From Rhizophagus irregularis (Eukaryota): DNA of 64,000 nt. The notes below the pieces were generated by a model. The model saw nothing but the letters and a program-made list of their open reading frames with translations. It was not told the DNA's origin and made no database searches. Numbering within the stretch: the first letter of the stretch is position 1; each line of letters begins with the position of its first letter. Location of the stretch: NCBI RefSeq assembly GCF_026210795.1, contig NC_089435.1, positions 62,001 to 126,000 on the forward strand, read 5' to 3'. The translations under genes and the position numbers were made by a program. Positions 28,368-64,000 of the stretch are shown here, piece after piece.

Positions 28368-28511
28368 ATGATACCCCAGGAATGCCCATATTGCTCAAGA
28401 ACATTTTCCTCCAAATCTGGATATACTCAACATGTTAAACATTGTGTTCCTCCTGTAATTGTTAGTGATAGTGAATCGGATCTCGTAACTGATATTAATA
28501 TGTTTATTTAA
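28368..28511 (+). pseudogene. Truncated zinc-finger N-terminus, resembling the start of a Plavaka/CACTA-like transposase
   Basis: MIPQECPYCSRTFSSKSGYTQHVKHC...SDSESD, cut off abruptly by the palindromic array. Confidence 0.5.
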
Positions 28512-29365
28512 AGCAATTGATTAAACAATGGTAAGAAAATTTCGAGCGAATTTTTCTTGCCATTGTTCAAAGTATACAATTGTTTATTTTTAAAGCAATT
28601 GATTAAACAATGGCAAGAAAAGTTCGCTCGAAATTTTCTTGCCATTGTTTAATCAATTGCTTTAAAAATAAACAATTGTATACTTTGAACAATGGCAAGA
28701 AAAATTCGCTCGAACATTTCTTGCCATTGTTTAATTCAAGTCTATTGTTTTTTTTTAAAGCAATCGATTAAACAATGGCAAGAAAAATTCGCGCGAATTT
28801 TTCTTGCCATTGTTCGAAGTATATCATTGTTTATTTTTAAAGCAATTGATTAAACAATGGCAAGAAAATTTCGCTCGAACTTTTCTTGTCATTGTTCAAA
28901 GTATACCATTGTTTTTTTTTCAAAGTAATTGATTAAACAATGGCAAGAAAAATTCGCTCGAACATTTCTTGCCATTGTTTAACTCAAGTCTATTATTGTT
29001 TTTTTTTTTAAAGCAATTGATTAAACAATGGTAAGAAAAATTCGCGCGAACTTTTCTTGCTATTGTTCGAAGTATACCATTGTTTTTTTTAAAGCAATTG
29101 ATTAAACAATGACAAGAAAAATTCGCGCGAACTTTTCTTGCTATTGTTCAAAGTATACCATTGTTTTTTTTAAAGCAATTGATTAAACAATGGTAAGAAA
29201 ATTTCGCTTGAACTTTTCTTCTTGCTATTGTTCAAAGTATATCATTGTTTTTTTTTAAAGCAATTGATTAAACAATGGCAAGAAAAGTTCGCGCGAACTT
29301 TTCTTGCCATTGTTCAAAGTATACCATTGTTTATTTTTAAAGCAATTGATTAAACAATGACAAAG
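28500..29365. repeat. Array of ~82-bp palindromic units, about 10 copies
   Basis: AACAATGGCAAGAAAA-TTCGCGCGAA-TTTTCTTGCCATTGTT plus a conserved linker. Confidence 0.95.
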
Positions 29366-29844
29366 AAATATTTATTGAATAAATAAAACATAAATTTGTT
29401 AACAAGATATCCATTATCTTAATTAATTTAACGAAATTTGGCCAAAAACCAAAATTTTTACCATTATCAGACACGCAAATTTAATGATTACATATTTATA
29501 TCTGTGTACCCGCCGTAACGTATACCTATATGTATAAAATCGATAACATTTAACCGTAGTACCGATCACGTGTATGTTTATCGCAACTGGTTCAATTACG
29601 TCAAAAAAATTATTATTTTACGACAAAAAAAAATTTGAAATTCTCGTTTATTTATTATGAAACCAATATAAAGATTTATTGAACTCGAAAATATTAGCGA
29701 TTGAAACTTAATTTTCCTTAAATTTAGGCCTTTATAAAGTTAAAAGTAAATTGACATTCCCGATCATCAAAATAAATAAAAATTTACAAAAACTTTATTC
29801 TTATAAAGATGAAAAAATGTTATTTTATTATCAGCTTGCAGTTA

Positions 29845-35899: not shown

Positions 35900-37175
35900 A
35901 TGTAAAGAAAAATTCACAAGAATTTTCATTAATACTGTTTAATTTTTAAGTTCAAAGTCCGATTGATAATACTGTTATACTGTTTAATTTTTAAAGCTCA
36001 ATTATAAACAAATTTAATAAATTAGTATTAAGATTTTAATTTAAAGATTAAGCAGTATCAAGGAATATTCTCGCGAATTTTTCTTGATACTGCTTAATTC
36101 TAATTAGCTAATTTAGTACTAATGTTTTAATTTAAAAATTAAGCAGTATCAAGAAAAATTCGCTCGAACTTTTCTTGCTATTGTTCGAAGTATATTATTT
36201 ATTTAAAGCAATCGATTAAACAATGGCAAGAAAAATTTGCTCGAACTTTTCTTGCCATTGTTCGAAGTATACCATTGTTTTTTTTTAAAGCAATTGATTA
36301 AACAATGGCAAGAAAAATTCGCTCGAACTTTCTTGCTATTGTTCAAAGTATATCATTGTTTTTTTTAAAAGCAATTGATTAAATAATGGCAAGAAAAATT
36401 CGCGCGAACTTTTCTTGCTATTGTTCAAAGTATATCATTGTTTATTTAAAGCAATTGATTAAACAATGGTAAGAAAAATTCGCTCGAACTTTTCTTGCTA
36501 TTGTTCAAAGTATACCATTATTTTTTTTCAAAGTAATTGATTAAACAATGGCAAGAAAAATTAGTTCGAATATTTCTTGCCATTGTTTAACTCAAGTCTA
36601 TTATTGTTTTTTTTAAAGCAATTAATTAAACAATGGCAAGAAAAATTCGCTCGAACTTTTCTTGCTATTGTTCAAAGTATATCATTGTTTTTTTTTAAAA
36701 GCAATTGATTAAATAATGGCAAGAAAAATTCGCGCGAACTTTTCTTGCTATTGTTCAAAGTATATCATTGTTTATTTAAAGCAACTGATTAAACAATGGT
36801 AAGAAAAATTCGCTCGAACTTTTCTTGCTATTGTTCAAAGTATACCATTGTTTTTTTTCAAAGTAATTGATTAAACAATGGCAAGAAAAATTCGCTCGAA
36901 CATTTCTTGCCATTGTTTAACTCAAGTCTATTATTGTTTTTTTTAAAGCAATTGATTAAACAATGGCAAGAAAAATTCGCTCGAACTTTTCTTGCCATTT
37001 TTCAAAGTAGCATTTTTTTTTTAAAGCAATTGATTAAACAATGGCAAGAAAAGTTCGCGGCTCGAACTTTTCTTGCTATTGTTCGAAGTATAGCATTGTT
37101 TTTTTTAAAGCAATTGATTAAACAATGGCAAGAAAAATTCGCTCGAATTTTTCTTGCCATTGTTCAAAGTATATT
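35900..37175. repeat. Second array of the same ~82-bp palindromic unit, about 12 copies plus degenerate ones
   Basis: Same unit as 28500-29365, with a 330-bp higher-order period (variant aaataatggc at 36381 and 36711). Confidence 0.95.
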
Positions 37176-37724
37176 TTTTGCAAAAACCGAAGCCCTTTAA
37201 AACGAAATATAGCCAAAGCGCAATTAATCCGCAGTACTGTGATACCACAATTAATTGCATTATTGCGGAATTGCGAATATCTGATATATGAACTTTAAAC
37301 TCCATAATATCTGCAATCAATACCCAGAACAAATGTTATGCCAATTACTGTAAGCCAAAGATACCGCGGTTCTATATGATCATGTGAAATTTATTTTTGA
37401 AATTTATTTATACATACAGTTTACAGTAGGATCGGGGAATTAGAAACCGTGCCTAGAAAACGGGGCTGCTTAAAAACTGCGCCCAGAAAACGGGGCTGCT
37501 TCTTTTGTGCCATTAATTTGAGGCTGCTTAAAAACCGCCCCAGAAACGGAGCTGCTTAAAAGGAAACCTATTACATCATGATTTAAACAAATTATGTATA
37601 TATATATTCTTTGTGCCATTAAAAATTAATAACAACTTTCGAACAATACATACGCTCAATACAATACATTCTTTTGCTATTTAAACTGTCTTCCTGGAAA
37701 TAATTAAATAATTTTCTTTTTTCA

Positions 37725-43876: not shown

Positions 43877-44970
43877 TGAGATCCCCCAATTCCCTCTGTC
43901 ATCAATTTATAGAGTTGCCACATCGAACGGGCATTCTCATGGTCGAACGAACGAATAAACGAACGAACAAACATTTAAACGAACGAACGATCAATTAAAC
44001 AAACAAGTAAATAATCAACGGCATAATTAACAAACAACATAATCAACGGACAACATACAACAACATTCTTGGTTCACGACATAAATAGCGTTAGTAATAT
44101 AAAACATTGGACGATATAAAATAAATTTTACTTCTCTAAATTTTTCCCAAATTATATCCACTTTTACCTTAAATTACAAACTTCAATAGCTCTCGCTACG
44201 AATAATTACTTTTCAAAATTGTATATTTAATTCATCTTAAATTTCCATTTTATTCAATTAAAATTAATTAAGCGAACAGTAATTAAAGTTTAGGGCGAAC
44301 CTATTACCTTTAATTAATATTATACTTCATTAACAAATAATTAAATGAAACTTATATTTTATTGAGTTCTGTGGATGTGAACTGTGGAATTATTTTGAAT
44401 TCCGTTCTCTTTTTATACAAATTTTATGCTACTTTCTATTCTATCTATATACTATCTTTTATGTTCTTTTTACATATTATCTTTGAACTATCTTTCTAAT
44501 ATACTATCTATATTTTAAATACGCTATCTTTTATATATATATTATCTTTTATAATATCTTTGTATAATCTTTTTATATTATCTTTTATATTATAATCTTT
44601 TTATATTATCTTTTATATTATTTTATGTTCTTTAATCTTTCTAACGTTATTTTATATGTTCTTTCAATCCGCTTTAGGTGTTTTGCTTATAATCTATCTT
44701 TTGTGGCTTATAATTATTCTTTCTAATCGTTCTTATTGTTAAAGATCGCTAAGCCCCAATTGATCGACTCTATTTATCCTATTGGTTCTTTGTCAATCAT
44801 TTGATAAATATTACATCATGTAGATCATTACTCTTCCTAAATGTTTATCCTTTTCGGCTAATTATTTATCCATCCACGCCAATTCACAATCAATTTGTTC
44901 GTTCTTAATATTTGGCAATTACATTTGGTGATTGAATTTTATCATCTTTTCATGCTTGATATTTGGCCGT
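43877..44970 (-). repeat. 3' LTR of element B, main part
   Basis: The reverse complement is homologous to 54674-55823 and ends GGGGGATCTCA. Confidence 0.92.
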
Positions 44971-45933
44971 TGTAGGATAAATAGAGTCGATCAATTGCGG
45001 CTTAGCAATCTTTAATAATAAGAACAATTAGAAAGAATAATTATAAGCCACAAAAGATAGATTATAAGCAAAACACATAAAGCGGATTGAAAGAACATAT
45101 AAAATAATGTCAGAAAGATTAAAGAACGTAAAATAATATGAAAGATAATATAAAAAGATAGTATAAAGATGGAACATAAAAGATAACATGTTAAAAAGAA
45201 CATATATAAAAAAAATTGAAAAGAACATATATAAAAAGATAACATATATAAAAAGATAGTATATTAAAAGATAGCGTATTTAAAATATAGATAGCGTATT
45301 AGAAAGATAATTCAAAGATAATATGTAAAAAGAACATAATATGTAAAAAGAACATAAAAGATAGTATATAGATAGAATAGAAAGTAGCATAAAATTTGTA
45401 TAAATAGAGAACGGAATTCAAAGTAATTCCACAGTTCTCATCCACAGAACTCAATAAAAATATAAGTTAAATTTAATTATTTGTTAATGAAGTATAATAT
45501 TAATTAAAGGTAATAGGTTCGCCCTAAACTTTAATTAATGTTCGCTTAATTAATTTTAATTGAATAAAATGGAAATTTAAGATGAATTAAATATATGCTT
45601 TCGGAAAGTAATAATTCGTAGCGAGAGCTATCGAAGTTTGAAATTAAAGGTAAAAGTGGATATAATTTGGGGAAAATTTAGAGAAGTATATTTTATTTTA
45701 TATCGTTCAACGTTTTATATTACTAACGCTATTTATGTTGTGAACCAAGAATGTTGTTGTATATTGTTGTTGTATGTTGTTCGTTGATTATGTTGTTTGT
45801 TAATTATGCCATTGATTATTTGCTTGTTCGTTTAATTGTTCGTTCGTTCGTTCATTCGTTCGTTCGACCATGGAAATGCCCGTTCGATGTGGCAACTCTG
45901 TAAATTGATGACAGAAGGAATCGGGGGATCTCA
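44971..45933 (+). repeat. 5' LTR of element A (963 bp)
   Basis: Matches 54863-55823 with about 3 substitutions by eye, and lacks 192 bp present near the start of the 3' LTR. Confidence 0.95.
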
Positions 45934-45950: not shown

Positions 45951-47403
45951 AGAAAGGAAATGATCATCATCACATGATTATTAATATGAAAATTTAATTT
46001 CGTTAGTAAGTCACTAATAGGTATTATTAATCAATATTTTATTTTAGAATTTATTTTTAGATTTCAGGTTTTGACGAGTTCAAAAGGAACCAATAAATCA
46101 ATAAGGATTTAATCGAGTTAAAAACCTGAAAAGGTGAAAGATTGGAGTTTGTTGTTGTGCAAGTAATCACTTAATTGATAGAAAGCACAAGAATATTTCT
46201 TTCGGGAATAAAGTACCTGAGAAATTTCATAAGGAGATGTGGAAGTTAAAGATGAATTTTGAAATAAAGATTAATAATGTGAGAACACCAATGTATTATC
46301 TGGGGTTCATCTGTGTGGTATGGGTTACCTCTGAGTTTGAATTTTGGATAAATGCTCGAGATTGGAAAATTTTTATTCTTCGACATTAAAGATTATAACG
46401 TATGGGTTACGTCAAATCTGGATACCCAGCTCAATAATGCGCAAATTGCTTTGGGGACGGGGAATGAAGATTGTAAAGACACCTACTATCAAGAAATATT
46501 GAATGGATAAAATAGGACAAACCTGTAAACTATCATGCTTTTACCCAATGGGAAAAAGATAGAGATAAGCCCAGTATAGGTCCACCAATTTGAGGAAAGA
46601 TAAGTTGGTTTAGATTAGTTTTATGGATAGCTGATGACTTTTGGAACTGGATTTCGGAAGGTTAGATTCACCCGTTAAGAGACAAGTCAGCCAACGAAGG
46701 AGGAAAAGATGGATACGTTGTATTGTTACAGGTCCTAGGCTACATTTCAGATGAGGGTTCCTGGTGTAGTGTGCTAGGTCACGCTTTCATTACAGTGTTC
46801 TGTTAAAAGAAGATGAAATAGAAGGATATTTACACATTAACGAGCCGTATAATGAACATTACGTGCAGTATTTAATAATAGAGTAAAATCCGAGAAGAAG
46901 GACATTTATTTGAAAAGAATGACATTTTGCATATTATAGATTAATTTATACAATATAGAATATATAGTAAGAAAGACTTATGTGGACGATAAGAAAGATT
47001 GAAGATTCACAAACTTTAAAAGTTATGAAAATTTTGGAGTTTGTGATATGTGATATGTGAAATTATGGATCACGGTGATAGGAGATAAATTTTAGAATGT
47101 GATATGTGAATTACGAATATCGGTGATAAAAGATAAACTTTGTGGCGCAGTAAAAAACCTCTGCAGTCTGAGGAGATCGTTGACTTAGAATAATTTTTGA
47201 AATTTTAAGGCGCAGTAGAAATTAATAGTAAAATATGGCGTAGCGAATATATAAAACTGGAAGATGGAATCTAAGGATTGAAAGAAGCAATCTATTTAAA
47301 GATAAAAGAATGTTTAGAAGATTGAAAATAGAAACGATAAGAGTGAAATATATATAAAAGGAGGAGAGGTTTTAGTTAAGATTCTGGATGAACGATTACA
47401 ACG

Positions 47404-50400
47404 ATGGAATGGTACGAAACTTGGAGGGTTGATTACGAAAATCACAAATTAAGACATGATGAAAATATCGGAAATGTGGATATAGACGAATTAAGAGGAG
47501 AAAATATAGCATGTGAAATATGTTATCCAATAGGAGATACACCAGAAGTTTTCAAGAAATTTTGGAAGATATTGCAAAAATTTGAATATACGATAAGAGA
47601 TTATAATGCAGAAACTATAAGAGCGTTATTAAATTTATTAAGTATAGATAGTGAAGAAAGAAATAATTATACAAAGGGAAGGACTAGAGAAGCGTTAGAT
47701 GTAATGGTCGAATCGATAAGATACTTGAAACAACCGGTATTAAGAGAAAAAGGATTAAAGATAATAATAATAGTGATTGCGAACGATTGTATAGAAAATG
47801 ATAAAGAAGATGAAACAATGGACAGATTGATAGGGAATGAAGAATTAATAAGATATGGTTATATTTTGGAAGATTGGGATGTGAATATAAGATTTGGGGA
47901 ATTTTATGAATGGTATAAAGAAGCTATAACAAGTTTTGTAGAATGTAAAGATAGCACTATTAGAAGATACAAAAATATATTATATGAAGAGGCTGAATTA
48001 AAAGAAGATGAGTCAACAGAAAAGATAGAAGCGTTCAAACAAAAGATTAGATTAATGTTACACACAATGCACATAAAAGTTCCTAGACATGGTTGGGGAA
48101 TTAGTAAAGAAATAACTGAAAAAGTTTATGATAAGATTAGGGGATTTGAGCAATTAAATATAGATGAAACAGATAGTGATGACACACCAAGAAGCTATAC
48201 TATAACAGAAACAGACGATGGGGAAGAAGAAAATTTGCCGATTAATAAAAATGAAGAAATGTCAGATGAGGAATCTAATGAATCTAATAATGTTGAAGAA
48301 ACGGAAACGACAAAGATATTTGAAGAAATAATTAGAATGGATTTGAAAAGAATGGGATATGATGTAGAAATAACGGAAATTGAAAGAATAAGAAAATTTG
48401 GAGTAATTGCAAAGATAATAACAACATATGAATTTATGAAGAAATATTTAACAATATGGAATCTTGAAGATGAAGAATTAGATGAGCAAATATTACAATG
48501 GAGAGTTGAAAACACCAAAGAATGCGAAAGATGTGGAACTGAAAGATTAAAGAAAGAATTTAAAATTGGAGAAGAAATTTGCATAGAATGCGAGAAAGAT
48601 GTTGAAAAAGAAAATCCAACAGATGACGAAGAGGAAAGGGAAGAGGATATAAAAGGGCCCGAAATTGGCTCAAGTAAAAAATCAAAAGGCAAAAAGGAAA
48701 ACAAAGAATTGAAGAAAACACCTATAATACCAATAGTACCAGTACCACCAATAAAACTAAAGTTAACGATGGCAGCATCAAGAGATGAAGTCAGAGCAGA
48801 TCTAAGGGCATTAACGATGATTACGCATAATCATGATATTGGGGGAAATTGGAACAATTTAGTACCACCACCAATAACATTGACAGGATTACAAGGAGAA
48901 ATTCAAGCGAATACTAATGCAATAGGAAATTTAAACGCAAACAGGGGGGCTATTGTGGAAATACCAGCATTTTATGGTACCAGTGGAGAAGATCCAGAAG
49001 AATGGGCAGATAAATTTGAGGAGACATTTACAGCGAATGGTTTAGGGAATGATGATGCACAGAGATTTAGAATAGCAAAAGCGAAATTAATGGGAGGAGC
49101 AGCAGATTGGTTAAAGACTGAAGGAGTAAATATTGTCGATTGGAATGTTAATGGAGATCAAAATTTAAGATTAAGAGTAAGAATAATTGGAAAGTATGCA
49201 AGTGATGAAATTAAAGATAGATGGCTAGAACAATTAGAAAAGATTAGACAGGGAGACGAGAATGTGACTCAATACCTCACGAGATTTAAGTATATGTTAA
49301 AGAGAGCGGGAGGTGATGCAGCAGTAGCAGCAAATCAGCAAAAGAGAATTTTTAATAGAGGATTAAAACCAGACTTTACTAAAGACGTAGTAATGGGAAA
49401 TCCAGCAGATTTAAATGCAGCATTTCAGATAGCAAAGAACGTAGAAAGAGGTTTAGAAGCATTAACAGATAAATTACAACCAAAAGAAATTAATGATGAA
49501 CAAAGAAGACAAGAACCTACTGTTCAAGGGAATGTAAGGAATAATAAAGAGATAAGTGTAGATGAATTAGCGGATAATTTTGCGAAGTTACAAATTAAGA
49601 TGTTAGAAGATGAGAATGAAAGATTAAGATATTTAGCGAGTCAGAGTTATAGGCGATTGCCACAAAGAAACCAACCAATACAAAGAAATCAACCAATTCA
49701 AAGAAATCAGTCATTCCAAAAAAGGGTACCAACATGTTTTAGATGTAATAGAGTGGGGCATTATAAGAATAATTGTCCTGAAGAAAGGAATGCAAGAGTA
49801 AATATGATGGACGAGTATTGTGATCAAGAAGAATATGATTATGATGAATATGGATACGAGGAACCACAATATAACGAAATGTACTATACACAAGGTTATT
49901 ACGATGATTATGAAGATAGAGAATTAAATTATTATAATGAATTATACGCAAAAGATAACGCAGTAAAAGGAAGAAGACAAACGAGGAGAACGAGTCCGAT
50001 AGTGGGATATAAAAATAATAATAAAGAAGGAAATTTACAAGAAGAATTAAGAGAAGCGGGAAATAGAATGGATGATAGAAAAATACCAAGTGGAACAACA
50101 ACACCAAGATATACGCCCGAAAGGACAGAACAAAACAATGTACACAGAGATAGTCAAAATTGGGATAATCCAATAGGACCAGAAGACTATAATTATGGTC
50201 GTCGACCCATGACAAAAGACGGAAGATTTTATAGACCAATGTTCACTAGAGAAGGCAAAGTATTTTACCCTGGAATGCGGCAAGATGAATCCGGAAATTG
50301 GGTTAGAACAAAGCCATCAGGAACAGGAAAGCCCAGAGAATATGGACCAAGATTAACTGACGGAATACCACCTTATGATATTGTGGAAGACGTGAAAAAT

Positions 50401-50508
50401 TGTAGAGCGAATATAACATATGGACAATTAATAAATGGGAATAACAAATATCATAAGCAATTGAGGGAAGGAACGTATAAGCCAAGAAGTATAAATGAGA
50501 AAAATTGA
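47404..50508 (+). CDS. gag: Gag with long N-terminal extension, capsid domain and CCHC zinc knuckle
   Basis: 1034 aa. IPAFYGTSGEDPEEW, IRQGDENVTQYLTRF, and CFRCNRVGHYKNNC. Confidence 0.9.
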   Translation: MEWYETWRVDYENHKLRHDENIGNVDIDELRGENIACEICYPIGDTPEVFKKFWKILQKFEYTIRDYNAETIRALLNLLSIDSEERNNYTKGRTREALDVMVESIRYLKQPVLREKGLKIIIIVIANDCIENDKEDETMDRLIGNEELIRYGYILEDWDVNIRFGEFYEWYKEAITSFVECKDSTIRRYKNILYEEAELKEDESTEKIEAFKQKIRLMLHTMHIKVPRHGWGISKEITEKVYDKIRGFEQLNIDETDSDDTPRSYTITETDDGEEENLPINKNEEMSDEESNESNNVEETETTKIFEEIIRMDLKRMGYDVEITEIERIRKFGVIAKIITTYEFMKKYLTIWNLEDEELDEQILQWRVENTKECERCGTERLKKEFKIGEEICIECEKDVEKENPTDDEEEREEDIKGPEIGSSKKSKGKKENKELKKTPIIPIVPVPPIKLKLTMAASRDEVRADLRALTMITHNHDIGGNWNNLVPPPITLTGLQGEIQANTNAIGNLNANRGAIVEIPAFYGTSGEDPEEWADKFEETFTANGLGNDDAQRFRIAKAKLMGGAADWLKTEGVNIVDWNVNGDQNLRLRVRIIGKYASDEIKDRWLEQLEKIRQGDENVTQYLTRFKYMLKRAGGDAAVAANQQKRIFNRGLKPDFTKDVVMGNPADLNAAFQIAKNVERGLEALTDKLQPKEINDEQRRQEPTVQGNVRNNKEISVDELADNFAKLQIKMLEDENERLRYLASQSYRRLPQRNQPIQRNQPIQRNQSFQKRVPTCFRCNRVGHYKNNCPEERNARVNMMDEYCDQEEYDYDEYGYEEPQYNEMYYTQGYYDDYEDRELNYYNELYAKDNAVKGRRQTRRTSPIVGYKNNNKEGNLQEELREAGNRMDDRKIPSGTTTPRYTPERTEQNNVHRDSQNWDNPIGPEDYNYGRRPMTKDGRFYRPMFTREGKVFYPGMRQDESGNWVRTKPSGTGKPREYGPRLTDGIPPYDIVEDVKNCRANITYGQLINGNNKYHKQLREGTYKPRSINEKN

Positions 50509-50517
50509 CTACACTCG

Positions 50518-51021
50518 GTGGGAACTATGAAAAATGAAGAAAAAAGAACTACAGCAATGAGAACAGAATTAGAAGTTGAAGATCAATTAGTGAATGTAAT
50601 AATAGATACTGGAGCAGCAGTAAGCGTGATAACAGATAAATTAAGAAGAAGATTGAATATACCTATGTTTGAAAAAAGTAAATTTAGATGTACGATAGCA
50701 AATGGGCAAAAGATAGCAGCGTTAGAAAAGGCGAATATAACTTTAAGGTACAAAGATGAATTAGAAATACTGAAAGAAGTTGAAGTAATCAATTCAGAAG
50801 AAGAGGATCTAATTTTGGGAAATGACATATGGAAGTTGTATAATGCAAAAATAAATTTTGAAGATCATACCTTAAGAATAGAAGAACAGGGAGAAATAAT
50901 AACAATTCCAGTAGGATATGAAAGAGAAGTAGCATATGAAAGTGAGGAGAGCGAGGACGATGAAGAATATGAAAGCAATGATGAAGGAGAGGTATTCAGA
51001 ATGCACCAGAATTTTAAATAG
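50518..51021 (+). CDS. Retropepsin aspartic protease
   Basis: IIDTGAAVS and DLILGND. Confidence 0.95.
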   Translation: MGTMKNEEKRTTAMRTELEVEDQLVNVIIDTGAAVSVITDKLRRRLNIPMFEKSKFRCTIANGQKIAALEKANITLRYKDELEILKEVEVINSEEEDLILGNDIWKLYNAKINFEDHTLRIEEQGEIITIPVGYEREVAYESEESEDDEEYESNDEGEVFRMHQNFK

Positions 51022-51056
51022 AGAGTCTTGGCTCTGAAGAGAGAGAGACGGAAAAG

Positions 51057-53135
51057 ATGCTCGAACCAAGTGAAAAATTTATGCAAAAACTAAGTATAGG
51101 GGAAGTAGAAGAACCAATTTGGGAAAACATGGTAAAATTACTATTAAAATACCAAGATATTTTAGAATATGACGAGGAAATAGAGGGAAGAACAAAAGCA
51201 GCTCAACATGAGATAAAGATAAAAGAGGGGGTAGAACCAATAAAGCAAAGAAGATACAAAGAAACAGATGAAAAGGCAAAATTTATAAGCGAAGAAGTGG
51301 ATAAATTGTTAAAACAAGGAAGGATAAGGAAATCGAAAAGTCCATGGAGTTCACCTGTTACATTAGCAGGAAAGAAAACGGGAAAATATAGATTCTGTAT
51401 TGATTATAGAAAGTTAAACAAGATAACTATAATGGATAGTTTTCCTTTACCAAGAATGGATGAATTATTAGACAAATACAGAAAAGCAAAATGGTTTTCA
51501 AGTATAGATTTAGCGGCAGGATTTAATCAAGTAGAAATGAAAGAAGAAGACAAAGAAAAAACAGCATTTGTATGTTCAAAAGGATTATTTGAGTATAATG
51601 TAATGCCATTCGGTTTAACGAATGCACCAGCAACATTTCAAAGATTAATGGACGAAATATTAGAAGAATACATAAACGATTTTGTAGTAGTATATATCGA
51701 TGATATTATGATATATTCAGAAAATTTGAAAGATCATATGGAACACGTGGAAAAAGTATTAAAGAAGCTACAGGAGAATAATTTAATAGTAAAATTAAAG
51801 AAATGTAGATTTTTGGAAAGAAACATAGAATTTTTAGGACATATAGTAGGGAATGATGGATTAAGGCCAGACGATAAAAAGATAGAAAAGATAAAAGAAA
51901 TGAAGGCACCAACAACGGTGAAAGAAGTAAGATCATTTTTGGGACTTTGTTCATATTACAGAAAATTTGTGAAAAATTTTTCAAAGATAGCAAGACCAAT
52001 AAGTGATTTGAGAAAGAAGGGAATACCTTTTATTTGGGGAAAAGAACAACAAGAAGCGTTTGAAAAATTGAAAGAAAAGTTGATACAATATCCAATATTA
52101 CGACATCCAGATTGGAAGAAAGAATTTCTATTAATAACAGATGCATCAGGAAAAGGATTAGGTGCAGTATTAAGTCAAAAAGATGAAAAAGGAAAAGAAG
52201 TAGTAATAGCATATGCAAGTAGAAGTTTATTACCAGCAGAAGAAAATTATCCGATAACAGAATTGGAATGTTTAGGAATAGTATGGGAATTCAACATTTT
52301 CATAAATATTTGATCGATAGAAAATTTAAAGTAATAACAGATCACAGTGCATTGAAAGGATTAATGAATGCAAAGATACCAAAAGGAAAAAGAGCAAGAT
52401 GGGTAATGGAATTACAACAATATAATTTTGAAGTAATACATAGATCAGGAAAAGAAAACACGAACGCTGACGCGTTAAGTAGGTTATTAAAGATAGTAGA
52501 AGACCAACCAGAAATAGTAATAATCGACGGAGTGGATGGATTAGGGAAAACAAGTATAGTACAAAATTTAATTAAAGAATGGGAAAAGCAAGGATTAAAA
52601 GTAAGATTCAACACTTATAAGAGAAGAAGAAAAGATAAAGACGAATTTTATGAATCAAAGATGGAGACAGAATGGAAATTCAGAAAAGAAGTAGTGGAAC
52701 AAATAAACAGAAGAATGTTAGAATATGATGAAGATACAGATATAATAATTTTAGATAAATCACCATATTGTGAATATTATTATCAAAAGATGAAAAGTTT
52801 TGATAGAGGATTAATTACTCCACATGGAAATCATGAGATAAAAAGAAATATTCAGATTGAAAGAAACAATAGATAAATCAATAGTGATATTTCTAGAAAA
52901 AGATGGCGATGTGTGTTGGAAAAATTACATCGGAAGAGAAACGAAGAAAATGGAAAAGTCATCATACCCAACATTAAAGAAGGACGAATATTTAGACATG
53001 GTTAAGATGTTTGAAGAAAATCAGAGCGTGTACAAAGATACCAAAAGATACAGTCGAGTAAAAGTTAAAAATGACAATAGTAGTTGGAGAAAAGTATTTA
53101 AAGAGGTGGAAAAATGGAGAAAAGTACAGAATTAG
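51057..53135 (+). CDS. pol: Reverse transcriptase-RNase H-P-loop kinase fusion, with frameshifts at ~52290 and ~52846 in this copy
   Basis: RFCIDYRKLN, MPFGL, YIDD, TDASGKG, TDHSAL and NADALSR, then IIDGVDGLGKT. Confidence 0.92.
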
Positions 53136-53138
53136 AAT

Positions 53139-53393
53139 ATGGAACAAATAATAAAAACAACGAATTCAGAAATAGAAGCATTGATTGAAGCATTAAAAAT
53201 TATTCAGGAAGAAATTATCAGATTAAGGGATAAAAACAGAAGGTTAGGTAACATAAAAATTAACGATTGGAACAAAAGGGAAGAATCATCAATTAAAGAA
53301 ATACAGGAGGAAATAATAAAAATAGAGATAGCCATAGGTAGAACGGAAATATACAAAGAAATATTATGGAAGAAAATAATTACAAGAGAATAA
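53139..53393 (+). CDS. Small coiled-coil ORF between the kinase and integrase
   Basis: 84 aa, in frame after the kinase TAG, and overlapping the integrase ATG. Confidence 0.55.
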   Translation: MEQIIKTTNSEIEALIEALKIIQEEIIRLRDKNRRLGNIKINDWNKREESSIKEIQEEIIKIEIAIGRTEIYKEILWKKIITRE

Positions 53394-54577
53394 TTGACAA
53401 TATCGAAAAAGAAAATAAGTATGAATTGAAAGAGGGAATTTTATATAGAGTGAAGGGACAAAACAAATTTAGAGTAATCAGGGATTATGAATACGAGGGA
53501 TTAATGTACATGATGCATGATAATGAATTATCAGGACATTTTGAAATAGAAGCGACATTAGATAGAATAAAAGAAAATTATTGGTGGAAAAATATGAAGG
53601 AAGATGTAGAAGAATATGTAAGGACATGTTGGAGTTGTCAAATGAGAGGAAAACCAAGAGGAAAGAACGAGTTAACGTCGATAAAGATAAATGAGCCATT
53701 CGAGATGATTGGGATAGATATAGTTGGACCATTAAAAGAGACAGAAAAGGGAAATAAGTACATTGTAGTAGCAATGGATTATTTTACAAAATGGCCCGAG
53801 GCCGCACCACTAAAAGAAGCTACAGCAAAAGAAGTGGTAGAATTTATTTGGAGAGACATAATTTGTAGACATGGATGTCCAAAGAAAATAATTAGCGATA
53901 GAGGGACTCACTTTAACAATAAAATGATGGAAGAATTAGTAGAAAGATGTGGGATAAATCATAGATTAAGTACACCATATAGGCCACAAACAAATGGTTT
54001 GGTCGAAAGATTCAATAAAACTTTATGCGAAGGATTAGCCAAATTAGGAGAAGAAAATTGGGATAAACATATACCATCTGTATTATTTGCATATAGAACA
54101 AGAAAGCAATCGTCAACAAAAATTAAACCTTTTTACGTAACATACGGGAGGAGAGCGAAACTACCATTGGATAAAGATGAAAATAAAATAACATTAGCTG
54201 ATAGAGTAAAAATATTAATTGAGGAGCTACCAGTAATAAGAAGAAAAATGAAAGAAAATGTGGAAGAAGCTCAAGAGAGACAGAAACAACAACATGACAA
54301 AAGAGGAATTAGAAAACCTAAATTTGAAATAGGAGAAAAAGTATTATTATATGAAGCATGGAGAGAGAAACAATGGTCTGGAAAATTACAGAACAAATGG
54401 AAAGGACCATATTTAATTCACGAAGAATTTGGAAATGGGGCTTATAAACTCAAAGAATTGGACGGAAGAATACTAAAGACACCACAAAATGGGGAATGGT
54501 TAAAGAAATTTTACAATCGAGGGAGATTTACACCAAAAATAGTAATTAAAGGAAAAGAGGTATTCGATAAGACCTGA
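53366..54577 (+). CDS. Integrase, separate ORF
   Basis: HDNELSGH...CWSC zinc domain, GIDIVG, SDRG, ERFN and GPY. No chromodomain evident. Confidence 0.95.
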   Translation: MEENNYKRIIDNIEKENKYELKEGILYRVKGQNKFRVIRDYEYEGLMYMMHDNELSGHFEIEATLDRIKENYWWKNMKEDVEEYVRTCWSCQMRGKPRGKNELTSIKINEPFEMIGIDIVGPLKETEKGNKYIVVAMDYFTKWPEAAPLKEATAKEVVEFIWRDIICRHGCPKKIISDRGTHFNNKMMEELVERCGINHRLSTPYRPQTNGLVERFNKTLCEGLAKLGEENWDKHIPSVLFAYRTRKQSSTKIKPFYVTYGRRAKLPLDKDENKITLADRVKILIEELPVIRRKMKENVEEAQERQKQQHDKRGIRKPKFEIGEKVLLYEAWREKQWSGKLQNKWKGPYLIHEEFGNGAYKLKELDGRILKTPQNGEWLKKFYNRGRFTPKIVIKGKEVFDKT

Positions 54578-54652
54578 GTTCGATTCGATTAAAATTATTA
54601 TGAATGAGACACGAGTTCGATTCTATCAAAGTTATTTGTGAGGTCACAAATA

Positions 54653-54668
54653 GCGAAGGGGGGGATAA
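54653..54668 (+). promoter_or_regulatory. Polypurine tract of element A
   Basis: GCGAAGGGGGGGATAA immediately before TGTAAA. Confidence 0.85.
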
Positions 54669-55823
54669 TGTAAACGGTCGAATATCAAGTATGAAAAGAT
54701 GATAAAATTCAATCACCAAATGTAATTTTCAAATATTAAGAACGGACAAATTAACTATGAATTGACGTGGATGGATAAATAATTAGCCGAAAAGGATAAA
54801 CATTTAGGAAGAGTAATGATCTACATGATGTAATATTTATCAAATGATTGACAAAGAACCAATAGGATAAATAGAGTCGATCAATTGCGGCTTAGCAATC
54901 TTTAACAATAAGAACAATTAGAAAGAATAATTATAAGCCACAAAAGATAGATTATAAGCAAAACACATAAAGCGGATTGAAAGAACATATAAAATAATGT
55001 CAGAAAGATTAAAGAACGTAAAATAATATGAAAGATAATATAAAAAGATAGTATAAAGATGGAACATAAAAGATAACATGTTAAAAAGAACATATATAAA
55101 AAAAATTGAAAAGAACATATATAAAAAGATAACATATATAAAAAGATAGTATATTAAAAGATAGCGTATTTAAAATATAGATAGCGTATTAGAAAGATAA
55201 TTCAAAGATAATATGTAAAAAGAACATAATATGTAAAAAGAACATAAAAGATAGTATATAGATAGAATAGAAAGTAGCATAAAATTTGTATAAATAGAGA
55301 ACGGAATTCAAAGTAATTCCACAGTTCTCATCCACAGAACTCAATAAAAATATAAGTTAAATTTAATTATTTGTTAATGAAGTATAATATTAATTAAAGG
55401 TAATAGGTTCGCCCTAAACTTTAATTAATGTTCGCTTAATTAATTTTAATTGAATAAAATGGAAATTTAAGATGAATTAAATATATGCTTTCGGAAAGTA
55501 ATAATTCGTAGCGAGAGCTATCGAAGTTTGAAATTAAAGGTAAAAGTGGATATAATTTGGGGAAAATTTAGAGAAGTATATTTTATTTTATATCGTTCAA
55601 CGTTTTATATTACTAACGCTATTTATGTTGTGAACCAAGAATGTTGTTGTATATTGTTGTTGTATGTTGTTCGTTGATTATGTTGTTTGTTAATTATGCC
55701 ATTGATTATTTGCTTGTTCGTTTAATTGTTCGTTCGTTCGTTCATTCGTTCGTTCGACCATGGGAATGCCCGTTCGATGTGGCAACTCTGTAAATTGATG
55801 ACAGAGGGAATCGGGGGATCTCA
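54669..55823 (+). repeat. 3' LTR of element A (1155 bp)
   Basis: TGTAAACGG...GATCTCA. Confidence 0.95.
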
Positions 55824-55907
55824 CCATTTACATTATCCCCTCTTCGCTATTTGTGACCTCACAAATAACTTTGATAGAATCGAACTCGTGTCTCATTCAT
55901 AATAATT

Positions 55908-57134
55908 CTAATCGAATCGAACTCGGGTCTTATCGAATACCTCTTTTCCTTTAATTACTATTTTTGGTGTAAATCTCCCTCGATCGTAAAATTTCTTTAA
56001 CCATTCTCCATTTTGTGGTGTCTTTAGTATTCTTCCGTCCAATTCTTTGAGTTTATAAGCCCCATTTCCAAATTCTTCATGAATTAAATATGGTCCTTTC
56101 CATTTGTTCTGTAATTTTCCAGACCATTGTTTTTCTCTCCATGCTTCATATAATAATACTTTTTCTCCTATTTCAAATTTAGGTTTTCTAATTCCTCTTT
56201 TGTCATGTTGTTGTTTTTGTCTCTCTTGAGCTTCTTCCACATTTTCTTTTATTTTTCTTCTTATTACTGGTAGCTCCTCAATTAGTATTTTTACTCTATC
56301 AGCTAATGTTATCTTGTTTTCATCTTTATCCAATGGTAATTTCGCTCTTCTCCCATATGTTGCATAAAAAGGTTTAATCTTTGTTGATGATTGCTTCTTT
56401 GTTCTATATGCAAATAATACAGATGGTATATGTTTATCCCAATCTTCTTCTCCTAATTTGGCTAATCCTTCGCACAAAGTTTTATTGAACCTTTCGACCA
56501 AACCATTTGTTTGTGGTCTATATGGTGTACTTAATCTATGATTTATCCCACATCTTTCTACTAATTCTTCCATCATTTTATTGTTAAAGTGAGTCCCTCT
56601 ATCACTAATTATTTTCTTTGGACATCCATGTCTACAAATTATGTCTCTCCAAATAAATTCTACTACCTCTTTTGCTGTAGCTTCTTTTAGTGGTGCGGCC
56701 TCAGGCCATTTTGTAAAATAATCCATTGCTACTACAATGTATTTATTTCCCTTTTCTGTCTCTTTTAATGGTCCAACTATATCTATCCCGATCATTTCAA
56801 ATGGTTCATTTATCTTTACTGGCATCAATTCATTTTTTCCTCTTGGTTTTCCTCTCATTTGACAATTCCAACACGTTCTTACATATTCTTTTACATCTTC
56901 TTTCATATTTTTCCACCAATAATTTTCTCTTATTCTATCTAATGTTGCTTCTATTCCAAAATGTCCTGATAATTCATTATCATGCATCATATACATTAAT
57001 CCTTCGTATTCAAAATTCCTGATTACTCTAAATTTGTTTTGTCCTTTCACTCTATATAAAATTCCCTCCTTCAATTCATACTTATTCTCTTTTTCGATAT
57101 TGTTTATTATTCTCTTGTAATTATTTTCTTCCAT
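55908..57134 (-). CDS. Integrase of element B
   Basis: Near-identical to the integrase of A, with HHCC, DDE and GPY motifs. Confidence 0.95.
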   Translation of the reverse strand: MEENNYKRIINNIEKENKYELKEGILYRVKGQNKFRVIRNFEYEGLMYMMHDNELSGHFGIEATLDRIRENYWWKNMKEDVKEYVRTCWNCQMRGKPRGKNELMPVKINEPFEMIGIDIVGPLKETEKGNKYIVVAMDYFTKWPEAAPLKEATAKEVVEFIWRDIICRHGCPKKIISDRGTHFNNKMMEELVERCGINHRLSTPYRPQTNGLVERFNKTLCEGLAKLGEEDWDKHIPSVLFAYRTKKQSSTKIKPFYATYGRRAKLPLDKDENKITLADRVKILIEELPVIRRKIKENVEEAQERQKQQHDKRGIRKPKFEIGEKVLLYEAWREKQWSGKLQNKWKGPYLIHEEFGNGAYKLKELDGRILKTPQNGEWLKKFYDRGRFTPKIVIKGKEVFDKTRVRFD

Positions 57135-57178
57135 AATAGTTCTTTAATTGATTTTATTTCTGAATTCGTTGTTTTCAT
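57107..57178 (-). CDS. 23-aa version of the small linker ORF
   Basis: MKTTNSEIKSIKELLWKKIITRE*. Its ATG overlaps the kinase stop (ATGA). Confidence 0.5.
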   Translation of the reverse strand: MKTTNSEIKSIKELLWKKIITRE

Positions 57179-59249
57179 GCTTGTCTCCATTTTTCCACTT
57201 CTTTAAATACTTTCCTCCAACTATTATCATCATTTTTAACTTTTACTCGACTGTATCTTTTGGTATCTTTATACACACTCTGATTTTCTTTAAACATCTT
57301 AACCATATCTAAATATTCGTCCTTCTTTAATGTTGGGTATGATGATTTTTCCATTTTCTTCGTTTCTCTTCCGATGTAATTTTTCCAACACACATCGCCA
57401 TCTTTTTCTAAAAATATCACTATTGATTTATCTATTGTTTCTTTCAATCTGAATATTTCTTTTTCCATCTCATGATTTCCATGTGGAGTAATTAATCCTC
57501 TATCAAAACTTTTCGTCTTCTGATAATAATATTCACAATATGGTGATTTATCTAAAATTATTATATCTGTATCTTCATCATATTCTAACATTCTTCTGTT
57601 TATTTGTTCTACTACTTCTTTTCTAAATTTCCATTCTGTCTCCATCTTTGATTCGTGAAATTCATCTTTATCTTTTCTCCTTCTTTTATAAGTGTTGAAT
57701 CTTACTTTTAATCCTTGCTTTTCCCATTCTTTAATTAAATTTTGTACTATACTTGTTTTTCCTAATCCATCCACTCCATCTATTATTACTATTTCTGGTT
57801 GATCCTCTACTATCTTTAATAACCTACTTAACGCGTCAGCGTTCGTGTTTTCTTTTCCTGATCTATGTATTACTTCAAAATTATATTGTTGTAATTCCAT
57901 TACCCATCTTGCTCTTTTTCCTTTTGGTATCTTCGCATTCATTAATCCTTTCAATGCACTGTGATCTGTTATTACTTTAAATTTTCTATCGATTAAATAT
58001 TTATGAAAATGTTGAATTCCCCAAACTATTCCTAAACATTCCAATTCTGTTATCGGATAATTTTCTTCTGCTGGTAATAAACTTCTACTTGCATATACTA
58101 GCACTACTTCTTTTCCTTTTTCATCCTTTTGACTTAATACTGCACCTAATCCTTTTCCTGATGCATCTGTTACTAATAAAAATTCTTTCTTCCAATCTGG
58201 ATGTCGTAATATCGGATATTGTATTAACTTTTCTTTCAATTTTTCAAACGCTTCTTGTTGTTCTCTTCCCCAAATGAAAGGTACTCCCTTCTTTCTCAAA
58301 TCACTTATTGGTCTTGCTATCTTTGAAAAATTCTTCACAAATTTTCTGTAATATGAACAAAGTCCCAAAAATGATCTTACTTCTTTCACTGTTGTTGGTA
58401 CCTTCATTTCTTTTATCTTTTCTATCTTCTTATCATCTGGCCTTAATCCATCATTTCCTACTATATGTCCTAAAAATTCTATGTTTCTTTCCAAAAATCT
58501 ACATTTCTTTAATTTTATTATTAAATTATTCTCCTGTAACTTCTTTAATACTTTTCCACGTGTTCCATATGGTCTTTCAAATTTTCTGAATATATCATAA
58601 TATCATCGATATATACTACTACAAAATCGTTTATGTATTCTTCTAATATTTCATCCATTAATCTTTGAAATGTTGCTGGTGCATTCGTTAAACCGAATGG
58701 CATTACATTATACTCAAATAATCCTTTCGAACATACAAATGCTGTTTTTTCTTTGTCTTCTTCTCTCATTTCTACTTGATTAAATCCTGCCGCTAAATCT
58801 ATACTTGAAAACCATTTTGCTTTTCTGTATTTGTCTAATAATTCATCCATTCTTGGTAAAGGAAAACTATCCATTATAGTTATCTTGTTTAACTTTCTGT
58901 AATCAATACAGAATCTATATTTTCCCGTTTTCTTTCCTGCTAATGTAACAGGTGAACTCCATGGACTTTTTGATCTCCTTATCCTTCCCTGTCTTAACAA
59001 TTTATCCACTTCTTCGCTTATAAATCTTGCCTTTTCATCTGTTTCTTTGTATCTTCTTTGCTTTATTGGTTCTACTCCATCTTTTATCTTTATCTCATGT
59101 TGAGCTGCTTTCGTTCTTCCTTCTATTTCATCGTCGTATTCCAAAATATCTTGGTATTTTAATAGTAATTTTACCATATTTTCCCAAATTGGTTCTTCTA
59201 CTTTCCCTATACTTAGTTTTTGCATAAATTTTTCACATGGTTCGAGCAT
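57175..59249 (-). CDS. pol: RT-RNase H-P-loop kinase fusion of element B, with a frameshift at ~58550
   Basis: YIDD. RNase H and kinase are continuous in one 439-aa ORF. Confidence 0.93.
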
Positions 59250-59284
59250 CTTTTCCGTCTCTCTCTCTTCAGAGCCAAGACTCT

Positions 59285-59785
59285 CTATTTAAAATTCTGG
59301 TGCATTCTGAATACCTCCCCTTCATCGTTACTTTCATATTCTTCATCGTCTTCGCTCTCCTCACTTTCATATACTTCCCTTTCGTATCCTACTGGAATTG
59401 TTATTATTTCTCCCTGTTCTTCTATTCTTAAGGTATGATCTTCAAAATTTATTTTTGCATTATATAACTTCCATATATCATTTCCCAAAATTAGATCCTC
59501 TTCTTCTGAATCGATTACTTCAACTTCTTTCAGTATTTCTAATTCATCTTTGTATCTTAAAGTTATATTCGCCTTTCCTAACGCTGCTATCTTTTGCCCA
59601 TTTGCTATTGTACATCTAAATTTACTTTTTCCAAATATAGGTATATTCAATCTTCTTCTTAATTTATCTGTTATCACGCTTACTGCTGCTCCAGTATCTA
59701 TTATTACATTCACCAATTGATCTTCAACTTCTAATTCTGTTCTCATCGCTGTAGTTCTCTTTTCCTCGTTTTTCATAGTTCCCAC
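59285..59785 (-). CDS. Aspartic protease of element B
   Basis: DTGA and ILGND. Confidence 0.95.
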   Translation of the reverse strand: MGTMKNEEKRTTAMRTELEVEDQLVNVIIDTGAAVSVITDKLRRRLNIPIFGKSKFRCTIANGQKIAALGKANITLRYKDELEILKEVEVIDSEEEDLILGNDIWKLYNAKINFEDHTLRIEEQGEIITIPVGYEREVYESEESEDDEEYESNDEGEVFRMHQNFK

Positions 59786-59794
59786 CGAGTGTAG

Positions 59795-62700
59795 TCAATT
59801 TTTCTCATTTATATTTCTTGGCTTATATGTTCCTTCCCTCAATTGTTTATGATACTTAGTATTTTCATTTACCAACTGTCCAACTGTTATATTCGCTCTA
59901 CAATTTTTCACGTCTTCCACAATGTCATAAGGTGGTATTCCGTCAGTTAATTTTGGTCCATAAACTCTGGGCTTTCCTATTCCTGATGGCTTTGTTCTAA
60001 CCCATTCTCCAGATTCGTCTTGTCACATTCCGGGATAAAATACTTTGCCTTCTTTTGTAAACATTGGCTTATAAAATTTTCCGTCTCTTGTCATAGGTCG
60101 ATGACCATAATTATAATTCTCTGGTCCTATTGGATTGTCCCAATTCTGTTCAGTTCGTTCAGGTGTATATCTTGGTGTCAATATACCACTTGGTATTTCT
60201 CTATCATCCATTCTATTTCCTGCTTCTCTTAATTCTTCTTGTAAATTTCTTTCTTCATTGTTATTTTTGTATCCCACTATTGGGTTCGTCCTTCTCGTTT
60301 GTCTTCTTGGTTTTACTGCGTTATCTTTTGCGTATAATTCATTATAATAATTTAATTCCCTATCTTCATAATCATCGTAATAGCCTTGTGTATAGTATAC
60401 TTCGTTATATTGTGGTTCCTCGTATCCATATTCATCATAATCATATTCCTCTTGATCATAATACCCGTTTATCATATTTACTCTTGCATTCCTTCCTTCA
60501 GGACAATTATTCTTATAATGCCCCACTCTATTACATCTGAAACACGTTGGTACCCTATTCTGACTTGGTTGATAACTATTCCTATTATCATTATTTAATC
60601 TCCTTCCTCTATCTGATTGATACCTATTCCTATTATCATTATTTAATCTTCTCTCTATATTCGATACCAGTCCTTCTAATTTACTAATTCTTGCCTTTTC
60701 TTCAAATGCTTTAACTAATTCATCCTCATAATTATCGCTCAATGGTTTTGCAAACATATTTTGTCTATTATCATCTTTTCCGATGTCTATTCTCGCACTA
60801 ATTGGTGTACCTATCGCTTTCCTAATAAACTCGTCCTTTGCACCTTCTTCCCTTACTGCTATGTCTATTGCCCCATTTAAGTTCGCTGGGTTTTGTCTTC
60901 TAACTTGATAACCTATTGTTGGTTCTAATCCTTCAATATAAAAATCTACTTGATATTCGTCTGCCAAGGCATGTCCTCTAGTTGCTATTCTTAATATTTG
61001 TCTAAATCTTCTTGTGTATTCTTCAACACTTTCATTTACTTCTTGTCGAGTTTTTCTTAATTCTAGCATTTTCTTTCTTCTAACATCCTCTCTAGTAAAT
61101 CTCTTTTTTATTCTATGTTTTAAATCATTATCATTATCTACATCTGCCCAATTCACTAAGTGACCTGCATTCAATTCTTTCATTTCAATATACCATTGTG
61201 CTGCTGCTCCTCTTAAATGTGCTGCTGCGTATGCCGCTTGTCTTACACCATTAGCTCCTGCTGCTTTTCCGACTGCTGTGAATGCTACCTCAAATTGTCT
61301 AACCCAATCGTTAACATCTTCATCTTCTTTTCCATGAAAGAGTGGTATACTAATTGTTCCTCCTGCTTCATTCCCTGCATTTTCAATCCTATCTATCAAA
61401 CTCGCTCCTACTCCCACTGCTGCATTCAAAGTATTAGCTGGATAACCTAAAGCATTCTCTATTAATCTCTTTACTTGATTCTCTGTTGCCATATTTTCTT
61501 GAAATAAATCTTGTAAATTGTAATCAGATAATTCACTTTCGTTGTCAGAATTTTTAATATTTAATGAACTATTCGTGTCTGAGTTTTGACTTAAGTCGCT
61601 ACCTCCTCTATTTATATCATTTTCAATTTCATCTTCAAACTCATCTTCGTTAAAATTTTCAATATTCTCATCCCATATTTCATCTGGACTTAAGATTTCT
61701 CCAGTTTTTTCTGAATCATCTGTATTATCTTCTTCTGATTCTTCATTATCACTCTTTTCACCACTTTCTTCACTTTCTATTATTCCTGCTTGTTCTTTCA
61801 ACAACTTATTTAACTTTTTCTTCAATTCTTTTTCTGACTCATTTTTATTTTCTTGAAAGATTTCAATGAATTCTTTATCTAAAAGTTCTCCATCTGTATA
61901 TCCCATGCTAGTTAATCTTAACAATTCTTCTTCAGTTATTATTGTTCCGATATCTTCAAAAATCTTTTGTAATCTTTTTACTCGATCATCAATTTCATCA
62001 ATATCTTCTTCTTCACAATCTTTGCATACAGTTTTTCCTAATCTAAACATATAATTCATCCATCTTATTTCGCATCTTTCACACCAAGTTGTATTCTCAT
62101 TTAACCACTTATGAATCTCTCTTCTTAACTCTTTATCTCCTAATTCTATTATTCTCATATACCTTTCTATGAATTCTTCTGTTACCATTATCCGATTATT
62201 AACTCCAAAATTCTTTATTCTTTGAATTTCAGATACATCTATTGTGTATCCTAACTTTTCTAAGTTGTTTTTTAATTCTATTAATTCATCTTGTTCTTCT
62301 TCCCGTATTTCCTGATTACACTCTTCACATCTGCCATTTTCTTCTGATATCATATAATCTAATTTCTGTTTATTGCATCTATTACATATTTTCGTACTCA
62401 AATCCATCCATTCCTTTATGTCTTCAGACTTATCAAATCTTCCTTCCTGAAAAATATAGTATCTTATAAAATCACTTGTTAACAGTATTCCCGTTTCTAT
62501 CTTTTCTTTTATTCCAAATTTCATTATTTCTCTGACGAGCTTTTCTTTTGGGTTTACTATTAGTTGTCTTAATCCTGTCCTTATCTCACTTAATTTCCAC
62601 GTTTTGTCCTCTACTATTATTTCTATTTCTTCTTCGGAATCATATATTTCATTATCTTCTTCTTGCTCTATCTCTATAAGCTTGAATTTTTGTGTTCTTT

Positions 62701-63767
62701 CCATCGCTCCTTTTAACTCTGTTACAATCCATTCTATTACTCCATCATCTATTTTCAATATAATAGAATCTCTTACGTCTATATCTTCGCTATCCTTAAA
62801 TGTCATACTATCTGTCAGTTTTTTTTACAGTATCTTCCTGCAAATTCTCTCCCTCAGATAACATCTTTTCGAACCATTCTAATGAATCATTTCCATGATA
62901 CGTATATATTTGTTTACCTTCATATTTGTCATTCCACCAGTACCTGAATCTTTCAAATCTAAGATATAAACTCGTGTTAAAATTCTTTTTCATTTCGTAA
63001 CTTTCTAAGCTATCTTCGCTTTCTGAATCTTCTGGTTCTTTTGTAAAGCCCCTAGTATCTATAAATATTCTTATTATCTTTTGTACCATATTCCTGTGAT
63101 ATTCGTGAACATTTTCTATATCTATGTTCCCATATTCCATATTGGACATTAATTCCTTTACTTTCTTCTCGTTCGTAGCTATTCCTTCTTCTTCATATAG
63201 TAATTCCCTGAATGTCTTTATTGCTCCCATCTTTATTCGTAATGGTTCAACTTCTTTCGATATGATTTTGTACCATTGCCAAAACTTCTCAAACCTTCTT
63301 TCAACATCCCAATCTTCTAAAATATATTTGTGTTCTATTAATTCCAGATTTCCAATCAATCTATCAAATACTTCATTCCCCAGATTTCTTTCAATACAAT
63401 CCCTCACGATCACTAATATGATTGTTCGTAATCCCTTTTCTTTTATTTTCGGTTGTATTCTATATCTTATTGATTCCGTTATTCTATCCATTGTGTCTCT
63501 ACATTTCCCCTTATGTATTGTATCTTCTCTTTCTGAATTATCCATACTTAATAAATCTAATACTCCCTTAATTGTTACATCATTATATATTATTATTGCA
63601 TCTTCAAATTTAAATAATGCGTCCCAAAATTTCTTGAATACTATTGGTTCATTTACTATTGGATAACATAATTCACAATTTAAACATTCGTCCAATTCTT
63701 CCGTTCCTAGTTCGTGTTCCTCTTTATGTGTTCTATATTCGCTTTCCCATTGATGGTACCATTCCAT
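59795..63767 (-). CDS. gag: Gag of element B, with frameshifts at ~62807 and ~60023
   Basis: N-terminus homologous to A, capsid IPLFHGKEDEDVNDW, and a CCHC knuckle. Confidence 0.88.
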
Positions 63768-64000
63768 TGTACGCTTTAGTTAAGTTATTATGAATATCCA
63801 TCCAGAATTTCAATCGGATTCCCATCTCTATATATATATATACATTTTACTCTTTCTATTTTCGATCTTCTAAATATTCTTTTATCTTTAAATAGATTAT
63901 TTCTTCCAATCTTTAAATTCCATCTTTCATTTTTATATATTTACTATGCCATATTTTACTATTAATTTTTACTGCGCCTCAAAATTTCAAAAATTATTCT

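Follow-up and report, generated by a model that had tools for sequence, protein, structure and literature searches.

The 64,000-nucleotide (nt) stretch of Rhizophagus irregularis DNA analyzed here (contig NC_089435.1, positions 62,001 to 126,000; hereafter the window) contains two related Ty3/Gypsy elements in opposite orientation, A on the plus and B on the minus strand, each with a kinase-like domain directly behind RNase H. On balance, we favor the view that a Rhizophagus Ty3/Gypsy lineage carries its own conserved protein with a predicted fold shared by thymidylate kinases (TMPK) and deoxynucleoside kinases (dNK), likely an ATP-dependent deoxynucleoside-monophosphate (dNMP) kinase that aids precursor supply for reverse transcription. 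An earlier note on this DNA had proposed that a thymidylate/deoxynucleoside-kinase-like domain was captured into the slot between RNase H and integrase; fold matches support this, and ratios of nonsynonymous to synonymous substitution (dN/dS) show the domain to be under selection. It is real and selected, and apparently undescribed: a new kinase subfamily in a retroelement with a captured nucleotide enzyme.

A kinase-like domain between RNase H and integrase

In element A, RNase H ends in NADALSR (52463-52483), and behind it, without a change of frame, come EIVIIDGVDGLGKTS (52511-52555), with Walker A at 52526-52549 (GVDGLGKT core, 52529-52552), FNTYKRRR (52607-52630), and the DKSPY motif, IIILDKSPYCEYYYQ (52742-52786). 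The two motifs thus lie right behind NADALSR as had been described, and the D...YQ spacing of the second does equal that of dTMP kinases, with K replacing R. The VIFLE strand (52884-52898), said to follow them, sits in a different frame, 2 nt having been lost near 52840. RNase H is moreover broken by the loss of 1 nt near 52285, so the domain placed at 52490..53135 retains its Walker A and second motif but is frameshifted and out of frame with reverse transcriptase (RT). Neither loss occurs in other family copies on contigs of four public runs. In element B, RNase H and the whole 215-residue kinase form a single open frame (58602-57175, minus strand), as claimed, but RT itself is broken near 58555. 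Because of these breaks, neither window copy has a whole RT-RNase H-kinase frame; such frames exist at two other loci, L002 (709 aa) and L004 (751 aa, cut by the contig start). The kinase terminates in a stop in both A and B, and integrase is a separate open reading frame (ORF; 53342-54577 and 57143-55908, respectively). A R. irregularis protein on record has a kinase part 100% identical to that of element B.

Word-based searches retrieved 57 near-length and 39 longer relatives of the kinase. Those with organism names all belong to R. irregularis or R. clarus, the remainder being metagenome proteins. An unindexed search of 1.84 billion representatives returned 49 proteins at E <= 0.001. Relatives were not found in the viral contigs, prokaryote genomes, or GenBank phages searched, nor did our searches recover a close cellular or phage homolog. 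We examined 23 metagenome loci, drawn from 155 pattern matches: RNase H lies upstream of the kinase in 11, integrase downstream in 15, both in 5, and at least one in 21, the two loci with neither being contigs of only 1.0-1.2 kb. The same slot is occupied in loci down to about 50% identity. The kinase occurs in three arrangements: fused behind RNase H, as its own ORF, and as an annotated integrase fusion. Thus, the proposed fusion to RT-RNase H stands for 5 of the 11 RNase H-bearing loci but not for 5 others with a stop between the two (L015, L017, L020, L022, and L023, of which L017 could be a frameshifted copy) or for the frameshifted L014, nor for a further 47-member R. irregularis cluster annotated in protein records as kinase-integrase (593 aa in 9 of the 15 members listed). 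Fused forms comprise a short-linker group, with 14-15 residues to Walker A (the window type), and a long-linker group with 84-93. In the tree, fused kinases are scattered among free ones, so changes between the two states have probably occurred more than once, and the kinase need not be tied to RT.

Between A and B the kinase shows 19 synonymous and 12 nonsynonymous differences (dN/dS 0.13), with values elsewhere of 0.12 for RT, 0.13 for RNase H, and 0.075 for integrase; for B against L001 and L002 the kinase ratio is 0.06 and 0.07. Among 300 kinase pairs, 226 were measurable, with a median of 0.24 and a maximum of 0.58, similar to the comparison values of RT (0.25), RNase H (0.18), and integrase (0.29). 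One of 25 kinase copies has an in-frame stop within the aligned part, and several clades are common to the RNase H and kinase trees. The domain therefore behaves as a heritable, selected component of the element, with dN/dS far below 1 across the family, not the neutral decay named in the earlier note as evidence against capture.

The integrase lies outside the kinase frame in 15 of 15 integrase-bearing loci and in both window copies. In Ty3/Gypsy elements integrase usually shares one Pol frame with RT, although this is not strictly defining. At the kinase stop, 17 of 22 copies have an ATG between -12 and +8 nt that starts a frame of at least 25 codons, compared with 17% in the background. This suggests coupled re-initiation; the overlaps are often ATGA or TAATG (element A: 53133-53142). 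Upstream, Gag terminates TGA-CTA in frame with protease (A: 50506-50530) and protease terminates TTTTAAATAG with RT in the -1 frame (A: 51010-51062), both junctions being identical in A, B, and L002. Read-through and frameshifting are known parallels for such Gag/protease and protease/RT junctions. This split of pol into separate ORFs is unusual for a long terminal repeat (LTR) retrotransposon.

Active site, possible ancestry, and proposed function

The domain has a confident predicted fold of the nucleoside-monophosphate kinase type, within the TMPK/dNK group, and a full-length profile match (E 4e-14). The P-loop kinase fold on which the earlier note's proposal hinged was thus recovered by both Foldseek and profiles. 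Scores against Pfam PF02223 are mixed: three relatives pass the gathering score (P0086, 30.2; P0121, 27.9; P0103, 27.4), but the kinase of element B does not. Residue conservation was counted over 60 nonredundant full-length sequences (of 106). The P-loop, with the pattern GxDGxGK[TS], is kept at D18 (58/60), G21 (59/60), and K22 (59/60); D91 is kept in 59, and K92, P94, Y95, Y100, R67, and the lid R152 in all 60. The ATP site is accordingly predicted to be intact. The family combines TMPK-like features (the P-loop Asp, S/C at +5, YQ at +9/+10) with dNK-like ones (Ser at +2, an acid at +6). Its DKSPYxE can be aligned with dNK DRSIFED, the [DE]RS-x-x-[SE]-D base-binding motif, although the Arg is replaced. 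The loop after strand 2, N-x-F-KRRR, is unlike both families. An acidic residue in positions 41-49 is present in just 4 of the 60, all distant forms and none in the window's subfamily. dNKs use a Glu after strand 2 as the general base activating the 5'-OH, and a basic pocket suits an acceptor already bearing phosphate. From the basic cluster K46-R49, R67, R77, K92, and R108, and the missing acid after strand 2, we infer that the acceptor is already phosphorylated; this favors a (d)NMP kinase, with base preference left unspecified.

Some clues on ancestry come from the most distant relatives (24-47% identity), some of which are fusions of a NUDIX domain to the kinase (P0092, P0113, P0120, and members of their clusters). 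Such fusions, with P0144, P0146, and P0155 as further cases, were observed on contigs of up to 16 kb, and one cluster has 71 members. Long-linker and free forms have about 40 residues ahead of the kinase that align with P0092 156-192 (HHalign 19%, E 0.0012), a segment that Pfam coordinates and the predicted model both place at the end of the NUDIX domain, as its last strand and helices. This alignment suggests a NUDIX-kinase ancestor, of which the ~40-residue N-terminal extension in most lineages may be a remnant, lost in the window's subfamily. The NUDIX box itself is absent from the Gypsy-located kinase copies scanned.

We suggest that the kinase would convert dNMP to the diphosphate (dNDP) using ATP and, when fused, would act close to or inside the particle, where it might supply dNTPs. 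The dNDP could then be completed by host nucleoside-diphosphate kinase or taken directly by RT; HIV-1 RT can use dNDP directly (PMC2312326). As with retroviral dUTPase, the benefit would come where cytoplasmic dNTP pools are low or skewed, and base specificity need not be thymine.

Several observations weigh against this reading or its components. Foldseek with P0002, the kinase of element B, ranked Giardia deoxyadenosine kinase first, profile comparison gives a tie between TMPK (96.1%, E 3e-9) and dNK (95.6%, E 1e-8), and P0002 scores 19.1 bits against PF02223, below the cut-off of 27. The Arg of the DR motif, R in 9 of 9 TMPKs compared, is K in 60 of 60 family members, and the EP after strand 2 (7 of 8 TMPKs, DP in the other) is absent from the family; thus, the active site is not the standard TMPK site. 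Distances for RNase H and kinase are only moderately correlated (Mantel rho 0.44 over 22 elements, 2 of 24 being skipped for a missing motif; 0.50 when the wrongly modelled P0062 is left out; and 0.38, p 0.013, with 12 representatives). Raw RNA reads, mostly 90-95% alike, give the kinase a depth per strand of 0-2 in three polyA runs from a single study and no coverage in a fourth run; no joints were seen in the reads over the kinase in these four runs. There is thus at most weak transcription of related kinase copies. The NUDIX match is itself weak (reversed control, E 0.13), and the tree lacks the resolution to place the NUDIX forms at its base. Finally, the host presumably owns a dTMP kinase, so the gain from an element-borne one is not obvious.

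Among other explanations, a salvage kinase making dNMPs from deoxynucleosides is unlikely: the general-base Glu after strand 2 has no counterpart, given the rarity of an acid in positions 41-49, the P-loop Asp is of TMPK type and absent from four dNK P-loops compared, and the YQ ending is TMPK-like. Such a kinase would give the element a deoxynucleoside salvage route that many fungi are not known to possess. We give somewhat less weight to a different acceptor or donor: modified or damaged nucleotides (handled with a NUDIX hydrolase, in pool editing or against an antiviral nucleotide) or nucleic-acid ends as acceptor, or polyphosphate used as in PPK2. PPK2, PSTK (10.4), and Kti12 (9.9) score far under TMPK and dNK, and the lack of a NUDIX box in the Gypsy-located copies also tells against it. 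The dNK-fold subunit of complex I offers a precedent for a noncatalytic nucleotide- or RNA-binding module serving packaging, RT assembly, or stop-start translation, yet near-invariance of D18, G21/K22, D91, and the lid R152 (58-60 of 60) would be rare for a dead enzyme and makes this improbable. Least credible is a neutral passenger, namely a piece of a host gene captured recently, or an error of assembly or annotation: the copy in element A is frameshifted and some database proteins are chimeric gene models, but kinase dN/dS equals that of the core enzymes, in-frame stops in the aligned part are confined to 1 of 25 copies, occupation of one slot extends to about 50% identity, and our searches gave no close cellular or phage homolog, so locus and selection data already contradict it.

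Beyond the dNMP kinase favored here, we tentatively put forward that these elements might manage nucleotide pools with a module of their own, a kinase family not yet described that derives from a NUDIX-kinase pool editor. It would act in or beside the particle, making dNDPs for direct use by RT or handling modified or antiviral nucleotides, and would be expressed from a polycistronic, stop-start-coupled pol. If so, a nucleotide kinase would for the first time be shown to work for a retroelement.

Structure of the two elements and their neighborhood

Element A has a 5' LTR at 44973-45933, without ~190 nt found at the start of the 3' LTR (54670-55823). The shared parts (44973-45933 and 54863-55823) differ at only 3 of 961 nt, so A inserted recently. 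A purine run, the polypurine tract at about 54652-54669, directly precedes TGTAA at 54670. Element A appears to be nested, in opposite orientation, ~9 nt inside the 3' LTR of B (43877-45933 and 54670-55832), whose remainder lies at 43877-44971 (minus strand); the flanks of A, CCGT and CCAT, may be a 4-nt target-site duplication with one mismatch. The long Gag ORF of A (47392-50508, 1038 aa; Pfam Retrotrans_gag, Ty3_capsid, CCHC) is followed behind its TGA-CTA stop by the aspartic protease ORF (50509-51021), RT and RNase H (51018-52483, YIDD at 51693), the kinase-like domain (52484-53135), a small ORF (53139-53393), and integrase (53342-54577; H2C2, rve, and a weak SH3_Tf2-1 in Pfam). On the minus strand, element B comprises a Gag region of two ORFs (60023-63779; 62808-63779 and 60023-62824), protease (59285-59794), RT-RNase H (57823-59288), the intact kinase (57175-57822), whose stop overlaps the next ATG (ATGA), and integrase (55908-57143), and it extends past the window edge. 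By Pfam, the window ORFs run Gag, then protease, RT, RNase H, and integrase, which is the Gypsy order. Against solved structures, RT-RNase H of the relative P0072 is closest to Ty3 RT (E 6e-110), followed by caulimovirus-type (5e-76) and retroviral enzymes (1e-45 or weaker). The pol of A and B is 96% identical and Gag strongly divergent (34% in the capsid part). Gag begins with a ~480-residue acidic extension with CxxC pairs (47392-48830 in A; 61450-63779 in B), for which Pfam gave no match at cut-off, and polyA reads peak at 48368-48959. Elsewhere in the window, ~80-nt units with internal inverted symmetry are repeated in tandem in two related arrays, at 28500-29380 and 36018-37179.

Other ORFs share the slot of the kinase. 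At L008:3-386, in one lineage, a coiled-coil-like ORF (protein P0202), not RNase H, lies directly upstream of the kinase, so RNase H and kinase may have additional cargo between them. An F-box ORF (Pfam 24.6 bits, cut-off 20.5) lies between kinase and integrase at L013:655-1086, and a similar start stands behind the kinase stop of L014; in this one lineage the slot holds another captured gene besides the kinase. Two kinds of small, conserved, family-less ORFs also occur between kinase and integrase, one of ~84 residues and one of ~50 starting MT/IE, behind the kinase stop in the window (53139-53393), at L001:1046 onward, and in L004, L006, L007, and L016. The 84-residue ORF of element A, which starts 3 nt past the kinase stop and matches no known family, has a similar ORF in L001 and no more than a 23-residue remnant in element B.

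Comparison with known systems

The earlier note knew of no such domain as a standard part of Ty3/Gypsy pol. No report of a kinase domain in retrotransposons was found in the literature searched, whose scope stopped short of subscription journals, Repbase, GyDB, and Dfam. Queries for 'thymidylate kinase' with 'LTR retro', or with 'retrotransposon' and 'gypsy', gave no matching papers, and term look-up in parts of the text, supplements excluded, found no such domain in PMC11075540, PMC8647823, PMC6431247, PMC3248453, PMC13465315, PMC8778642, PMC6416283, or 10.64898/2026.05.21.726589. Several of these proteins already bear the label 'thymidylate kinase' from automatic annotation, without a retroelement link. 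If the proposed function is true, retrotransposition would be held back by precursor supply strongly enough for an anabolic enzyme to be selected, as happens in large DNA viruses, possibly in connection with the multinucleate, long-dormant cells of arbuscular mycorrhizal fungi. The kinase is a small, well-folding protein open to direct assay and a marker for a whole clade of transposable elements in these fungi, and the stop-start pol organization is a second testable oddity.

Compared with TMPK (PF02223; PHROG 761), the retrotransposon kinases have DK for DR and N-x-F-KRRR for EP, are 10-19% identical to solved structures, and group in a quick tree as a separate clade with a long stem (SH-aLRT 95). 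In contrast to dCK, dGK, dAK, and Dm-dNK (PF01712), they have no acid after strand 2 and a P-loop of TMPK type. Retroelements are thought to rely on host dNTPs, dUTPase being the textbook nucleotide enzyme that they carry. The dUTPase of non-primate lentiviruses and of Gypsy elements in fungi, rotifers, and planarians is likewise a captured enzyme of nucleotide metabolism, but of an unrelated fold and a hydrolase, not a kinase. Reportedly, another study describes captured methyltransferases (DNMT, DAM) in Gypsy and DIRS retrotransposons. The dUTPase lies between RNase H and integrase in lentiviruses (PMC4531489) and between protease and RT in LTR retrotransposons (PMC6431247), and Ty3/Gypsy elements are described as having stably captured an enzyme domain, a DNA methyltransferase (10.64898/2026.05.21.726589). 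The lentiviral parallel drawn in the earlier note thus holds for gene order but fails as a polyprotein, because integrase is translated from a separate ORF, behind a kinase that either closes the RT-RNase H frame or has an ORF to itself. Captured methyltransferases, for their part, act on DNA or chromatin, whereas the retrotransposon kinase is predicted to act on free nucleotides.
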